NCBI GenBank assembly: GCA_036725345.1 | Contig: DAIMEJ010000004.1 | Coordinates: 63,735 to 127,734 of the forward strand | From: Syntrophales bacterium | GTDB taxonomy: Bacteria > Desulfobacterota > Syntrophia > Syntrophales > UBA2192 | DNA length: 64,000 nt | Direction: 5' to 3' | Shown: positions 4,039 through 44,504 of the stretch, piece by piece | How positions within the stretch are numbered: position 1 is the stretch's first letter | Layout of the letters: the number at the start of each line of letters is the position of its first letter | Translations under genes and position numbers: made by a program | Notes under the pieces: generated by a model | Database searches by the model: none | Told to the model about the DNA's origin: nothing | Seen by the model: the letters and a program-made list of their open reading frames with translations, nothing else

Positions 4039-4371
4039 ATGTTCGAAGTTACGGCAAAGGCGGAAGAGAAGTTCAACGAATTCTTCAAGTCGCGAACGGA
4101 AAAACCGTTTATCCGCATTTTTCTCCAGCAGGGGGGGTGATCCGGTCCCGCGCTCGGCATGGCTCTGGACGAGTCAAACGAAAGCGACGAGACCTTCAAG
4201 GTCAATGGCCTGACCTTCATGATCGAAAAGGAACTCTTTGAGATGGTGAAACCCCTCAAGATCGATTTCATGGAAACACCCCGGGGCGCCGGCTACATCA
4301 TCGAATCCAACCTGAAGGCGGCCGACGGCTGCGGCGGGTGCGCGGGGTCCTGCGGTTCATCCGAAGGGTGA
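4039..4371 (+). CDS. IscA/HesB-like Fe-S cluster protein, candidate selenoprotein (in-frame UGA at 4138-4140 read as Sec)
   Basis: The track gives only 4159..4371. An ATG at 4039 with SD AGGAGG 6-11 nt upstream opens the same frame: MFEVTAKAEEKFNEFFKSRTEKPFIRIFLQQGG-TGA-SGPALGMALDE... The TGA sits where IscA/HesB proteins have the Cys of the GGCSG motif. The C-terminal Cys cluster GCGGCAGSCG is retained. selB lies in the same window. Confidence 0.75.
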
Positions 4372-8311: not shown

Positions 8312-8486
8312 ATAAGACCAGAGGTTGAGAAGTTAAGAAGTTCAGAAGTTGAGAAGCAGAGAGAAACCTTTATGTTGGACCCCGCCTCTCGGCCCCGGGC
8401 CTTTAGCCTTTTGCCTTGAGCCTTATGCCCGACAGGCGGGATTCTATGACATAGCATATTCGACATATTTCCATATTTGCGTACCA

Positions 8487-10085
8487 ATGAAACTTTTCTC
8501 TAATTTATGCGAAGAACTCGACAGGACGACGAAGACGACCGAAAAGGTCGCGGCGCTCAGGCGGTATTTCGAGAGGACGACACCGGCTGATGCGGCATGG
8601 GCCGTCTATTTCTTGAGCGGGCAAAAGATCAAGGGGCTGATGCGGCCGCGGAAGCTATGTACCTGGGCCTGCGAAGCGGCAGGGATTCCCGAGTGGCTCT
8701 TCAATGAATCCTATGAAGCGGTGGGTGATCTCGCGGAGACTATCGCCCTTATTCTTCCGCCCTCTGCCGGTAAGGACAACACCCCCCTCCACGCCTGGGT
8801 TGAAGAGAGGCTTCTCCCCCTCCGGAAGGCGACCGAGGAGGTGAAGCACAGGGCCGTCCTGCAGGCCTGGGGCACACTGGACGAGGCAGGGCGTTTTGTC
8901 TTCAACAAAGTCATCACCGGGACCTTTCGCCTGGGCGTTTCGACGATGACGCTCATCCGGACCCTCGCGGAGTCAAGCGGAAACGACGCAACCGTCATCG
9001 CCGGGAGACTCGCCGGATCGTGGGTCCCGACGGCCGATTCCTATAAAAACCTGCTGGCCCCGCCGCGCGACTCCGAAGACTCCGGCCGGCCCTTCCCCTT
9101 CTTCCTTGCCTATCCCCTGGAGGGAGATCCCGAATCCCTGGGCCCCGTATCCGCCTGGCAGGCCGAGTGGCAATGGGACGGGGTCCGTGCCCAGCTGCTG
9201 CGACGCGACGGAAAGACCTTCCTCTGGTCGCGGGGCGGAGAACTGATCACCGGCACATTTCCGGAAATAGGAGATGCGGCGGGGAGGCTTCCCGAAGGCA
9301 CCGTGCTCGACGGAGAGATACTGTCCTGCAGGAAGGGGTCGATTCTCCCGTTCAGCAACCTGCAAAGGAGGATAGGCCGAAAGAGACCCGGGGAGAAAAT
9401 CGTTGCCGAATTCCCCGCCGCGTTCATGGCCTTCGATCTTCTCGAAGATGACGGCAAGGATCTACGCGGCGAACTACTCTCGGAACGACGGCGGAAGCTC
9501 GAGGTTCGGGCGGCACTCTGGCCCCGCGGAGGGGCCCTTCTCCTCTCGCCGGTCCTCGAAGCCCGCTCATGGGGAGACCTGACAGGGGCGCGGGGTAAAA
9601 GCAGGGACCGGAACGCAGAGGGCCTCATGCTCAAAGGACTGGGTTCCCCTTACCGGGCGGGCCGGCACTGCGGAGACTGGTGGAAATGGAAGGTCAACCC
9701 CTTTACCCTCGATGCGGTCCTGATCTACGCTGAACCCGGACACGGCAAGCGGGCCGGTCTTTTCACGGATTACACCTTCGGTGTCTGGCATGAAGGAACG
9801 CTTGTTCCTGTGGCGAAGGCCTATTCCGGTCTGACCGACGCCGAAATCCTGAAGGTCGATTCTTTCATCCGTCGGCATACTCTCGAGAAATTCGGGCCCG
9901 TGCGGTCGGTGACGCCTGCCCTCGTCTTCGAGATCGCCTTCGAGGGGATTCAGCGGTCATCGCGCCACAAATCGGGCGTGTCGGTGCGCTTCCCGCGCAT
10001 CCTCCGTATCCGGGAAAAGCGGCCGGAAGAGGCTGACACCCTGGAGGCGGTACTGTCTTTCCTGCCCGACAAGACAAAAGTGTGA
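8487..10085 (+). CDS. ATP-dependent DNA ligase (ligase-associated damage response type); motif I lysine replaced by Gln
   Basis: The track ORF starts at 8349, but the family-like N-terminus MKLFSNLCEELDRTTKTTEKV begins at ATG 8487. Ligase motifs are present: III VLDGEIL, IIIa FMAFDLL, IV EGLMLK, V WWKWK. Motif I reads EWQWDGVR (CAA at 9171-9173) instead of KxDG. Confidence 0.85.
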   Translation: MKLFSNLCEELDRTTKTTEKVAALRRYFERTTPADAAWAVYFLSGQKIKGLMRPRKLCTWACEAAGIPEWLFNESYEAVGDLAETIALILPPSAGKDNTPLHAWVEERLLPLRKATEEVKHRAVLQAWGTLDEAGRFVFNKVITGTFRLGVSTMTLIRTLAESSGNDATVIAGRLAGSWVPTADSYKNLLAPPRDSEDSGRPFPFFLAYPLEGDPESLGPVSAWQAEWQWDGVRAQLLRRDGKTFLWSRGGELITGTFPEIGDAAGRLPEGTVLDGEILSCRKGSILPFSNLQRRIGRKRPGEKIVAEFPAAFMAFDLLEDDGKDLRGELLSERRRKLEVRAALWPRGGALLLSPVLEARSWGDLTGARGKSRDRNAEGLMLKGLGSPYRAGRHCGDWWKWKVNPFTLDAVLIYAEPGHGKRAGLFTDYTFGVWHEGTLVPVAKAYSGLTDAEILKVDSFIRRHTLEKFGPVRSVTPALVFEIAFEGIQRSSRHKSGVSVRFPRILRIREKRPEEADTLEAVLSFLPDKTKV

Positions 10086-41570: not shown

Positions 41571-42371
41571 TCAGAACCTGATCCGTTCCGGGTGGGCATA
41601 TATCCTCATTTTACCGTTTCTCACGTAACCGATCAGCGTGATGCCGAACTCTTCAGCCAGGGCGACCGCCCTCGAGGTGGGCGCCGAGTGAGATATGATC
41701 AGTGAAACGCACATGGTGCGAATCTTGTGGATGATCTCAGCGGACACGCGCCCCGTCGTCAGGATAACCTTGTCCTTCGGGGACAGCTCCTTCAGGAGGG
41801 CGTAGCCGCTCAGCATGTCGAGGGTATTGTGTCTCCCGATATCCTCGCGGGCGACGATGATCTTCTGTGGTGTCGCCAGGGCGGAGCAGTGTGTCCCCCG
41901 CGTGGCATCGTGCAGCTCCCCCGAGCGAAGAAGACCGTTCATCAGTCTCAAAACGTTCCGGGGCGTCAGGGCCGGACCGCCGTTTGCCTTCCTCTTCAGG
42001 CCCGTCCCCGCGTCGTCATAGGCGACCACGCCGCGGGCGCCGCTGGAGGCCAGTGTCCGGCCGGCCTTCTTTCCGAGAACCCTGCGACCCTTCCCCGCGG
42101 CGACGCGGACCTCGACCCGGCCGCCGTCTGCCGTAACATCGAGGGCGAGGATGTCTCTCCTGTCTTTCACGACCCCTTCCGAACGCAGGAACCCTGCGGC
42201 GAGTTCCTCCAGATGTTCGCCCGTGCAGGCGACACTGACCACGCGCCTGCCGTTGAGGACGATCTCCACCATGCGTTCCCGTATGACGGCGGCGGACGTT
42301 CTCGAAGCCTCCTTCGTGTCGCAGAGGACCATCCTCACCTTCTCGACGGGGCCGGATGGTTTCTTTTTCAT
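41571..42371 (-). CDS. fdhD: formate dehydrogenase accessory sulfurtransferase FdhD
   Basis: 266 aa. EDIGRHNTLD and GRVSAEI motifs. The start overlaps the selB stop (ATGA). Confidence 0.85.
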   Translation of the reverse strand: MKKKPSGPVEKVRMVLCDTKEASRTSAAVIRERMVEIVLNGRRVVSVACTGEHLEELAAGFLRSEGVVKDRRDILALDVTADGGRVEVRVAAGKGRRVLGKKAGRTLASSGARGVVAYDDAGTGLKRKANGGPALTPRNVLRLMNGLLRSGELHDATRGTHCSALATPQKIIVAREDIGRHNTLDMLSGYALLKELSPKDKVILTTGRVSAEIIHKIRTMCVSLIISHSAPTSRAVALAEEFGITLIGYVRNGKMRIYAHPERIRF

Positions 42372-44287
42372 TTCTCCTTGCGCTCCCTGAGCATACGGTG
42401 ATCACCCACCCGCATGGTGAGCTTGGTCGCGTCAAAATATTCCATGAGCGGTATGATGAACTTGCGGGTAAGCCCCGTGAGATCCTTGAAGGTCGCCGGC
42501 GTCGCCTTGCCGTCTTTCGTGAGAAGCTTCACGTAATCGTTCCTCAGCTGATCCATGGGGTTCCTGTGGAAGTACAGTTCTTCCGTCACCTTCAGGAGAA
42601 TGCCCTCCTTGAGGAGAACGCCGAGGACGCTCTGGACCTCCTCCGGCCTCGAATCGAAGCCCTCCAGGACCTCTTTCACGAGGGGTGGGGTGAGCTTTGC
42701 CTTGAGATAAGTCTGCGCGATCTTCGCCTTCAGTCCTTCCAGTTCACCCTTCAGACTCACCCGGTGACCCGTAAGACGGACGCTTTCTTTCTCGACGGCA
42801 ATACGGCCTTCTTTTTCCAGTTCCTTTGCGGCCATGTTGAAAAGTTTCGCATCAACCTCCCCGGGGAGGATCATGCGGAGCTCCTCTTTCGGCATTCCTT
42901 CCTTCAGGGGGTGTTTGCGGTGATAACCCTCGATCTCGGCGAGGAGCCTTTCTTGAAGGGCCTGGTAGGCGGGATAGGCAACGATCCTCGATCCATCCTT
43001 CTCCGGCAGGATAACCTTCTTTTTCTGGGTGAAGTCCTTGATGATTTTCTGGAGATCCGCCATGGGCATGCCGCTACGAACGGCGAGATCCCGGGCGGAC
43101 AGGCCGGCAGGCCCCGTTCGCGCAATGATGGTTTCGGCCCTCTCGGCGTCACCGCCCGAATGAAGAACCTCCAGTTCCGCCAGAAATTTGTTGATGCCCC
43201 GCTTTTGCTTCCGACCCCGGGGATCGAGGATTTCGCCGCCGCCGATGGTCCTCACCGGGGAATAGCTTCGAATGACGAAGCGGTCCCCCCCCATGACGAC
43301 GACCGGGGACTCCGGAAGCACCTGGGCAAAGGCATTCTCGCCGGGCTCAAGCTCCTCCCGGGTGAAAAGAAGAACCCTCGCGACGATCTCGCTGGTTCCC
43401 GAGTGAAATCTAACCAGGTTTCTCGTCTTGAGCTTCCGCTCGCCCCCGCGCAAATAGTGGAGGTAAACGTCAAGCCGTTGAGAGGGTTCGAAGATCCCCG
43501 GGTGCGTCAGCACCTCCCCCCGCGCGACCGTCTCCTTTTCCACGCCCTGGAGGTTGATGGCCGTCCGCTGCCCCGACTGGGCGGCATCCCGGCTTTCGTT
43601 GTGCACCTGGATCCCCCTGATCTTGGCCTGGATCTGCGAAGGCATGACCTCCACCGTATCCCCGACCTCCACCTTTCCGGAGATGAGGGTTCCCGTGACC
43701 ACGGTGCCGAAACCTTTCATCGTGAAAACCCGATCGATGGGAAGCCGGAAAAGACCCGATTCGCGCCGTTCCTCGAGGAGAGCGGCGGCATCCTCTATCG
43801 CCCGGCGAAGTTCCGGTATACCTCTGCCCGTTACGGCGGAACAGGAGATCAGGGGCGCATCGGCCAGGAAGGTCCCCTTCAGATATTCCCGGATGTCGTC
43901 CGTCACGAGGGACAGCCACTCTTCTTCCACCAAATCGACCTTGGTGATCGCCACGACACCGTGCCGGATGCCGAGAAGCGCGCAGATGTCGAGGTGTTCT
44001 CTCGTCTGCGGCATGATGCCCTCGTCGGCCGCGATGACCATGACGACAAGATCGATCCCCGAGGCCCCCGCGACCATGTTCTTCACGAATTTTTCATGCC
44101 CCGGAACATCGACGACGCTGATCCGCTCGTCGCCGTCCAGGTCAAGGGGCGCAAAACCCAGCTCAATCGTGATCCCCCGCTCCTTTTCCTCCTTGAGACG
44201 ATCGGTGTCCACGCCGGTCAACGCCCTGACCAGGGCCGTTTTCCCATGATCCACATGTCCGGCCGTGCCGAGAACGATATGTTTCAT
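42368..44287 (-). CDS. selB: selenocysteine-specific translation elongation factor SelB
   Basis: Family-like start MKHIVLGTAGHVDHGKT at ATG 44287. G-domain motifs DVPGHEKF and TKVD, EF-Tu-like domains II/III, and a long C-terminal winged-helix extension (~270 aa). Confidence 0.9.
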   Translation of the reverse strand: MKHIVLGTAGHVDHGKTALVRALTGVDTDRLKEEKERGITIELGFAPLDLDGDERISVVDVPGHEKFVKNMVAGASGIDLVVMVIAADEGIMPQTREHLDICALLGIRHGVVAITKVDLVEEEWLSLVTDDIREYLKGTFLADAPLISCSAVTGRGIPELRRAIEDAAALLEERRESGLFRLPIDRVFTMKGFGTVVTGTLISGKVEVGDTVEVMPSQIQAKIRGIQVHNESRDAAQSGQRTAINLQGVEKETVARGEVLTHPGIFEPSQRLDVYLHYLRGGERKLKTRNLVRFHSGTSEIVARVLLFTREELEPGENAFAQVLPESPVVVMGGDRFVIRSYSPVRTIGGGEILDPRGRKQKRGINKFLAELEVLHSGGDAERAETIIARTGPAGLSARDLAVRSGMPMADLQKIIKDFTQKKKVILPEKDGSRIVAYPAYQALQERLLAEIEGYHRKHPLKEGMPKEELRMILPGEVDAKLFNMAAKELEKEGRIAVEKESVRLTGHRVSLKGELEGLKAKIAQTYLKAKLTPPLVKEVLEGFDSRPEEVQSVLGVLLKEGILLKVTEELYFHRNPMDQLRNDYVKLLTKDGKATPATFKDLTGLTRKFIIPLMEYFDATKLTMRVGDHRMLRERKEK

Positions 44288-44504
44288 CCTGCGGTTCTTC
44301 CCGTCCTGAAAGATCACCCGGCCCCCGGCGGACAAGGGGGCTGCCTCCCGCCCTGTTCCACCGCGGTAAACCGGTGTTTCAGAAAAATAACAAAATGGCG
44401 GCATTTAAACAACCATTAAAAAACGAGGAACCCCTGGACAGCCGCCAGAAAGGGGTTGTCAGAAGCGCAGGTCCGTGTTAACAGACCCCCCAACGGTGCA
44501 GGAC

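Follow-up and report, generated by a model that had tools for sequence, protein, structure and literature searches.

The stretch of DNA considered here, hereinafter the window, comprises 64,000 nucleotides of contig DAIMEJ010000004.1 from a Syntrophales bacterium (assembly GCA_036725345.1) and encodes, one directly after the other on the same strand, an exonuclease of the metallo-beta-lactamase (MBL)/beta-CASP fold and a homologue of LigB, the ATP-dependent DNA ligase of the bacterial repair cluster that consists of LigB, Lhr-Core, MPE (PdeM) and an exonuclease (PMC7470946, PMC7826289). The ligase gene combines an apparently complete set of family features with the replacement of a single residue: the codon for the motif I lysine, which accepts AMP in this class of enzymes, is CAA, and the protein accordingly has glutamine (Q229) at this position. 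A first-pass annotation of the window, made from the nucleotide sequence alone, had drawn attention to this replacement, and the alignments described below bear it out: the CAA codon is in frame, and Q229 falls on the catalytic lysine. The features that are relevant for the subsequent discussion are listed in Table 1.

Table 1. Genes, motifs and other features of the window, in window coordinates
Feature	Position	Strand	Remarks
LigB-type ATP-dependent DNA ligase homologue, 532 aa	8487..10085	+	DNA-binding, nucleotidyltransferase and OB domains; ATG at 8487, end of stop codon at 10085
Motif I, A-E-W-Q-W-D-G-V-R	9162..9188	+	sequence, alignments
CAA = Gln229 replacing the adenylylation Lys	9171..9173	+	AAA in sister species
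Single-nucleotide polymorphism (SNP), A235V	9190	+	nonsynonymous; one contig (L001)
Motif III, VLDGEIL, intact	9303..9323	+	sequence, alignment
Motif IIIa, FMAFDLL, intact	9423..9443	+	sequence, alignment
SNP, L330 (window) vs P330 (majority allele, family consensus)	9475	+	nonsynonymous
Motif IV, EGLMLK, intact	9618..9635	+	sequence, alignment
Motif V, WWKWK, intact	9678..9692	+	sequence, alignment
Ser499	9981..9983	+	Ala in all 119 nearest homologues; 2 residues before motif VI
Motif VI core, RFPR, intact	9987..9998	+	sequence, alignment
Ligase-associated DNA damage response exonuclease, MBL/beta-CASP fold, 334 aa	7307..8311	+	directly upstream of the ligase
Exonuclease-ligase spacer, 175 bp	8312..8486	+	with short imperfect AGAAGTT-like repeat
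Imperfect repeat of AGAAGTT-like units, gaggttgagaagttaagaagttcagaagttgagaag	8320..8375		opens the spacer
Weak promoter-like site	8349..8376		in the spacer
IscA/HesB-like open reading frame	4039..4371	+	probable selenoprotein
In-frame TGA of the IscA/HesB-like open reading frame	4138..4140	+	in the GG-x-SG motif
Open reading frame of 550 aa	23973..25625	-	CFI-box-CTERM domain
selB	42368..44404	-	

With respect to the family assignment, the evidence is consistent at the levels of both sequence and structure. Among the NCBIfam models, the window ligase matches NF006701 with 663.5 bits (cutoff 543) and, over its whole length, TIGR04120, the 'cisplatin damage response ATP-dependent DNA ligase', with 587.7 bits (cutoff 400), and the Pfam domains PF04675 (DNA_ligase_A_N), PF01068 (DNA_ligase_A_M) and PF04679 (DNA_ligase_A_C) make up the three-domain architecture. 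The AlphaFold2 model, obtained from an alignment of 34 sequences, has a mean predicted local distance difference test (pLDDT) score of 88.6, and the best folds that Foldseek retrieves for it from the PDB are archaeal replicative ligases and human LIG1 (E values from 1e-39 to 1e-28); 3w1g, the complex of Lig4 with Artemis, which is itself a beta-CASP nuclease, is also among the fold matches. Thus, the window gene resembles the LigB of the repair cluster in scoring above both curated cutoffs, in the succession of DNA-binding, nucleotidyltransferase and oligonucleotide-binding (OB) domains, in the canonical form of motifs III to VI, and in the presence of an exonuclease gene of the TIGR04122 family directly upstream; the motifs III, IIIa, IV and V that the first-pass annotation had listed as intact are indeed all present. 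It differs from LigB in that the lysine of motif I is glutamine. By sequence and fold, then, this is a LigB (TIGR04120/NF006701), and yet it fails the defining catalytic feature of the family.

The position of Q229 in the alignments leaves no room for a lysine elsewhere that would take over the place of the lost one in motif I. A phmmer comparison with the PDB sequences puts Q229 on the lysine of 'EIKYDG' in the ligase of Thermococcus gammatolerans (9df9), which rules out another or migrated lysine at motif I; no alternative lysine that aligns to the motif was found. Inspection of the motif I column in close relatives, which had been proposed as a check, gave lysine in 119/119 once the cluster of the window protein itself, to which glutamine is confined, was set aside from the 120 best homologues in the database, and the 133 lysine-bearing proteins among 150 representatives of the family all have their lysine in the Q229 column. 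Nor does the nucleotidyltransferase domain contain any lysine specific to the window protein, compared with 13 close relatives of the lysine type, that could serve as a relocated nucleophile: K243, K324, K337 and K371 are common to most of these 13, and K283 to 3 of them. Because established ligase chemistry needs the motif I lysine, the Q229 protein should be incapable of forming lysyl-AMP, and neither step 1 nor step 2 of the reaction, nor the ATP-driven sealing of 5'-phosphate nicks, would be expected of it. On the same grounds, the earlier inference that the enzyme as encoded does not self-adenylate can be upheld.

Could the glutamine be an artefact? The codon is CAA in all 11 loci that were fetched. 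Clustering at 90% identity groups the window ligase into three near-identical full-length alleles, all of them with EWQWDG, and one C-terminal fragment, and these alleles were seen on 27 contigs that come from at least six JGI metagenomes, three ENA assemblies, two Logan run assemblies and five NCBI accessions, the latter being proteins from metagenome-assembled genomes (MAGs) labelled 'Syntrophales bacterium'. Over 12-20 kb, the fetched loci differ from the window by 0-6 SNPs, which marks the population as nearly clonal; because the loci do differ at other SNPs, however, they are not duplicates of a single assembly. In none of the 11 loci is the ligase interrupted by a frameshift or a stop, or truncated. 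Thus, we have to conclude that K229Q truly exists and has reached fixation in this Syntrophales species, which disposes of the sequencing or assembly error that the first-pass annotation had kept among its options. Altogether, the population data include 9 SNPs in 20 kb, 7 of them nonsynonymous and 2 synonymous; the only two that lie within the ligase, L330P and A235V, are both nonsynonymous. A test in the style of McDonald and Kreitman was considered and set aside as uninformative, with only 9 SNPs available, 2 of these in the ligase.

The origin of the change can be traced with some precision. The nearest relatives of the window ligase that have the lysine are 74-79% identical to it, and two of the lysine-bearing loci (L058 and L059; 76% identity) belong to sister species in which the gene order, namely ABC-F, cyclic nucleotide monophosphate (cNMP)-binding protein, exonuclease, ligase, radical SAM protein and phosphoribosyltransferase, is fully syntenic with the window. 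In both sisters, the motif I codon is AAA; therefore, CAA is a single A-to-C step away, as had been suggested, and it is this one change that would have replaced the AMP-accepting lysine with glutamine. In a neighbour-joining tree, the window ligase is nested in a clade in which each of the 13 remaining members has lysine. Locally, CAA is the rare glutamine codon (7 CAA vs 54 CAG), which fits a recent, unameliorated mutation. Given that the other catalytic motifs of the window ligase are still canonical, while older lysine-less lineages have lost several of them, we infer that the change from lysine to glutamine is evolutionarily young.

Signs of decay beyond the motif I codon are hard to find. 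Of 163 columns with a conservation of 97% or more, the window ligase departs from the consensus at 4 (V149L, A159T, K229Q and A499S), and its close lysine-type relatives do so at 0-11. Two columns that are otherwise invariant among the 119 homologues are broken, by K229Q and A499S; an excess of such hits was considered as a sign of decay and is suggestive at best, given that two or more singleton breaks at invariant columns occur also in 5 other sequences of the 120. The three-taxon branch lengths of the ligase are 0.121 substitutions per site for the window against 0.175 and 0.170 for the sisters, and the resulting branch ratio, 0.70, lies inside the range of 10 flanking genes (0.51-1.81); the exonuclease branch that leads to the window is not accelerated either. 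The pairwise ratio of nonsynonymous to synonymous substitution rates (dN/dS) of the ligase is 0.22 and 0.16 between the window and the two sisters and 0.18 between the sisters, although both this ratio and the rate are values for the whole branch of the window lineage and not for the period after the loss of the lysine only. All in all, no decay or acceleration is visible on the window lineage, and a very recent knockout and a gene that is still constrained fit this picture alike. As a separate observation, three of the close lysine-type relatives (P0013, P0008 and P0066) have 3-5 singleton changes each at otherwise invariant columns, those of P0013 including R to G, R to P and W to L. Metagenome errors could account for such changes, as could additional copies of the gene under relaxed constraint.

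Any interpretation of the window gene has to take into account LigB homologues from other organisms in which the same lysine is missing. Two scans of nucleotide sequences were aimed at such genes. In the first, each GTDB species was represented by one genome, and DNA that would be translated into E-W-Q-W-D-G-x-R was sought, so that by design only glutamine could be detected; of the 34 matches, 9 coincide precisely with motif I in a LigB homologue, and these belong to two Syntrophales MAGs, one Bacteroidia MAG, five alphaproteobacterial MAGs and a cultured isolate, Monaibacterium marinum C7. A scan of metagenomes for any motif I codon that does not begin with A gave 12 matches, 11 in ligase homologues (Q in 4, L in 5, E and C in one each) and one, with H, in a 132-aa fragment. 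Four complete open reading frames (ORFs) from these scans pass the TIGR04120 cutoff (L040, L015, L034 and L021), and the truncated ORF of L036 reaches 358 against the required 400. In the lysine-less homologues, the glutamate of motif IV is usually gone (EG..K with R, T, C, G, L or S instead), as is the first lysine of motif V (WWKWK with T, S, V, A or Q) and, in the scan alignment, the phenylalanine of motif VI (RFPR to R[RANQG][PA]R), and yet the proteins are full length and keep the scaffold residues.

The frequency of the phenomenon is best judged from an exhaustive HMMER search, in which the motif I lysine is missing from 16 (~11%) of the nearest 150 representatives of clusters at 50% identity (P0346-P0495). 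The residues found in its stead are M (4), L (3), Q (3) and, in one protein each, H, I, S, C, T and W; in an additional representative, there is a gap in this column. The idea that glutamine is a specially favoured replacement is not supported, since M, L, I, C, H, S, T, W and E occur as well. None of the 17 proteins (the 16 and the gapped one) keeps the phenylalanine of motif VI, which is also missing in 26 of the 133 lysine-bearing representatives; the motif IV glutamate is missing in 15 of these 133. The window gene, in which the nucleophile alone is lost, thus appears to be unique in this sample (RFPR is kept in 0/17). It resembles the lysine-less homologues (the L040/P0244-P0294 clade, P0124 and the alphaproteobacterial and Bacteroidia MAG genes L014, L021, L034, L036, L041 and L044) in being full length without the motif I lysine and, for most of them, in having the exonuclease directly upstream; it differs from them in the retention of RFPR, EGLMLK and WWKWK, and these homologues, at 31-55% identity to the window ligase, are not its closest relatives. 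A possible second case of the loss of the nucleophile only was noticed in a compost metagenome contig (L055:1442-3031), with glutamate at motif I (EWEWDG) and canonical other motifs; this is a single contig at ~3x, and an error is possible.

Of special relevance is a clade that came to light when the Syntrophaceae protein L040 was used as the query (members include L040:5534-7129, L043, L046, L053 and L056, and the proteins P0244-P0294, P0299 and P0304). This clade is monophyletic and consists of 53 cluster representatives with K (25), M (17), Q (5), L (5) or I (1) at motif I, the different residues being interleaved on the neighbour-joining tree. The phenylalanine of motif VI is lost throughout, R[S/R/G/Q/A/M/L]PR being found in nearly all members and a few having altered also the first arginine or the proline, and the glutamate of motif IV is often lost. 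The L040 clade sits in the same locus as the window gene, with ABC-F, cNMP-binding protein, exonuclease and ligase, and therefore represents its positional orthologue in another Syntrophales lineage. In the lysine-less subclade with Q or L, dN/dS is 0.27-0.44 for diverged pairs (dS 0.16-0.45) and 0.51 for a near-identical pair (dS 0.03), and for the partner exonuclease it is similar, at 0.39-0.41 over the same pairs. The exonuclease gene lies immediately upstream in 14 lysine-less loci, and its HxHxDH motif is kept in the 10 examined loci in which the N-terminus is present (L052 is cut at the end of the locus). Judging from these sequence comparisons, the lysine-less proteins of the LigB fold are maintained genes under purifying selection, not wreckage.

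The cultured carrier, M. marinum C7, provides a further instance. Its full-length LigB homologue (P0124; L015:5484-6992, NZ_OCTN01000001.1) has glutamine at motif I and reads CGVMLK, WHSWL and RRAS at motifs IV, V and VI, respectively; there is no exonuclease gene in the 8-kb locus. Among the 120 best matches, the nearest relatives of P0124, which are at most 50% identical to it, have lysine in all 118 cases with a readable motif I, one being unread. As a lone outlier among lysine-type relatives, P0124 therefore points to an independent loss, and a monophyletic alphaproteobacterial group with glutamine, which had been considered, is rejected for M. marinum on the same evidence. In the family as sampled here, LigB homologues without the lysine are common and recurrent. 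No description of them was found in the literature searched, the coverage of which was incomplete, so that they may have been noticed earlier elsewhere.

Two bodies of published work are pertinent to what such proteins could do. The mutants of ligases in which the motif I lysine was changed to alanine, namely Chlorella virus K27A, Mth DNA ligase K251A, vaccinia K231A and MthRnl K97A, are described in PMC3514331 as losing steps 1 and 2 of the reaction, in which the ligase is adenylylated and then passes the AMP on to the 5' phosphate, and keeping step 3, the formation of the phosphodiester bond at a nick that already has the AMP. The window ligase is similar to these mutants in that it has lost the nucleophile from an otherwise intact active site, and the same phenotype is predicted for it, but the allele is a natural one that has become fixed in a species, with glutamine and not alanine. 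In addition, Lig4 that is devoid of catalysis continues to support repair, in a structural capacity (PMC9638927, PMC3549972). The pair formed by Lig4 and Artemis (3w1g) is comparable to the bacterial pair insofar as a three-domain ATP-dependent ligase is teamed with an MBL/beta-CASP nuclease of the SNM1/Artemis family; however, Lig4 belongs to a eukaryotic non-homologous end joining complex with XRCC4, Ku and DNA-PK, so that the likeness is an analogy only, and the interaction between the two bacterial proteins is putative.

So what could a LigB that is not expected to ligate be good for? In our proposal, the Q229 protein is probably still made and useful, and could act as a nick- or end-binding partner of the intact beta-CASP exonuclease that is encoded next to it; furthermore, on account of its preserved motifs III, IV and V, this protein may still seal nicks that are already adenylylated (AppDNA). 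We give roughly even chances to the retention of such a role, either independent of ligation or limited to step 3, in conjunction with the exonuclease; the argument is one by analogy, because elsewhere the exonuclease and its ligase-like partner stayed under purifying selection after the lysine was lost. The more general hypothesis, which we put forward tentatively and consider to fall just short of even odds, is that ligases of the LigB type have a ligation-independent function linked to the exonuclease, for example, clamping a nick or an end to direct the nuclease, of such value that the protein is kept in many bacterial lineages after the loss of the lysine and, later, of motifs IV, V and VI, in which case the window gene, having lost nothing but the nucleophile, would be the earliest natural snapshot of the passage from an enzyme to a pseudoenzyme. 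Several findings speak against a retained role of the window protein. There is no direct sign of selection on the window ligase after the change from lysine to glutamine, the population being almost clonal; the absence of acceleration is equally expected for a very recent mutation; the local rarity of CAA is what a recent, unameliorated mutation would show; and both within-species SNPs of the ligase are nonsynonymous. Besides, the older lysine-less lineages have lost residues of motifs IV, V and VI that are kept here, and a role of the window protein may differ from any that they have.

Some of the same facts can be read in favour of the principal alternative, which is that the ligase is dispensable in this strictly anaerobic organism of digesters and that K229Q drifted or hitch-hiked to fixation without any retained role, the gene being an intact-looking pseudogene at the onset of decay. 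We consider this a serious possibility, albeit one that stays distinctly below an even chance. A single step leads from the AAA of the sisters to the locally rare CAA; the canonical state of the other motifs, of which the older lysine-less lineages lost several, makes the event a young one; a near-clonal population eases fixation by drift or hitch-hiking; the two population SNPs in the ligase are nonsynonymous; and accessory ATP-dependent ligases are non-essential and patchily distributed (PMC7470946). On the other side are the related Syntrophales locus and the other lineages that kept full-length lysine-less ORFs under purifying selection beside an intact exonuclease, the lack of any frameshift, stop or truncation in 11 loci, and the normal rate on the window branch, with which a very recent event is nevertheless still compatible. 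Of the three options offered by the first-pass annotation, then, error has to be abandoned, and the other two, a recently inactivated gene and a ligase-fold protein with a non-catalytic role, survive as the leading explanations: the window gene is either a recent inactivation or a first step toward a non-catalytic ligase-like partner.

It is improbable, in our estimation, that the window protein is still an active ligase, be it through another nucleophile, a migrated lysine, or step 3 alone on a pre-adenylylated substrate supplied by another enzyme. Such activity would be in line with the intact motifs III, IIIa, IV, V and VI, with the retention of step 3 on AppDNA by the lysine-to-alanine ligases as described in PMC3514331, and with the relocation of catalytic residues that, as outlined in PMC10211241, sometimes occurs in pseudoenzymes. 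However, the window protein has no lysine that its close lysine-type relatives lack, and a dedicated cellular pathway that would use step 3 only has not been described. To our knowledge, no ligase of the covalent nucleotidyltransferase superfamily uses anything but the motif I lysine for step 1, which also counts against residual activity. Finally, the notion that the genome truly has AAA (lysine) at this site and that CAA is a sequencing, assembly or consensus error, to which the one-base distance from the sister species and the singleton changes at invariant columns in metagenome proteins from single contigs could lend some colour, has next to no chance in the face of the identical codon in 11/11 loci and three alleles, from 27 contigs across many samples and assemblers.

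The surroundings of the ligase gene had been thought to add to its oddity, on account of the long spacer that separates it from the exonuclease gene and of the missing Lhr and PdeM genes. The exonuclease itself is a regular member of its family (TIGR04122 in NCBIfam, 448 bits, cutoff 325) with an intact HAHGDH (HxHxDH) metal-binding motif. The spacer, the size of which had been given correctly to the base pair, has counterparts of 232 bp in L058 and 83 bp in L059 that are of low complexity and cannot be aligned with that of the window; the place of the AGAAGTT-like repeat that opens the window spacer is taken in L058 by a low-complexity run of another kind (GTGGTTAGTGA-like). No Rfam match at E <= 1 was obtained within the spacer, and two terminator-like matches were detected in the scanned stretch, neither of them within the spacer. 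With no Rfam match, a single weak promoter-like site and no conservation in the sisters, the spacer was rejected as a candidate functional element.

In accord with the earlier statement that no such gene follows, neither Lhr (TIGR04121) nor PdeM (TIGR04123) was found among the large ORFs of the window: no ORF reaches 800 aa, and of the 10 largest that were scanned, 7 belong to unrelated families and 3 have no match. Unlike the typical LigB cluster, the window pair is flanked on the ligase side by radical SAM and phosphoribosyltransferase genes, and, within the window, lacks these neighbours. The same is true, however, of the lysine-type relatives L058, L059 and P0021, in which no Lhr or PdeM gene lies beside the pair, and none is found downstream of the lysine-less ligases L046, L053, L057, L049, L040 and L034. 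Because spacers of 83-232 bp and the missing Lhr and PdeM genes are common to relatives that have the lysine, the context is not odd; these are features of the clade unrelated to the glutamine.

Two other loci of the window may be mentioned in passing. An IscA/HesB-like ORF has a TGA in frame within its GG-x-SG motif, at the position that is cysteine in the family, and was split by gene callers into pieces of 33 and 70 aa, the shorter of which is conserved in L058, L059 and L061. With cysteine substituted for the TGA, the translated product reaches 110.6 bits against NF038090 (IscA_HesB_Se; cutoff 85); it is probably a selenoprotein of a known type, and a selB gene is present in the same window. 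Elsewhere, on the opposite strand, the 550-aa ORF has a CFI-box-CTERM domain (NF041770, 87.5 bits), and its remainder has no NCBIfam match.

What does the glutamine in motif I mean for the LigB family? The role of the module of LigB and exonuclease, with or without Lhr and PdeM, is still called unknown, although the module is widespread in bacteria (PMC10140301, PMC7470946). The loss of the nucleophile that is fixed in a species, together with the approximately one in ten diverged clusters that are lysine-less and under selection beside an intact nuclease, argue for a role in addition to the sealing of nicks. The Q229 protein, a Q229K revertant, the older degenerate clades and the cultured carrier M. 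marinum C7 provide the material on which this proposition can be put to the test. In terms of annotation, many proteins that match the TIGR04120 equivalog model and are named 'ATP-dependent DNA ligase' on this basis cannot be ligases. Should the window gene turn out to be truly a fresh knockout, this would be an ordinary event of limited interest, and the single allele is, in any case, a modest curiosity; the recurrent lysine-less lineages that are maintained by selection offer a testable handle on the function that LigB performs with its exonuclease.

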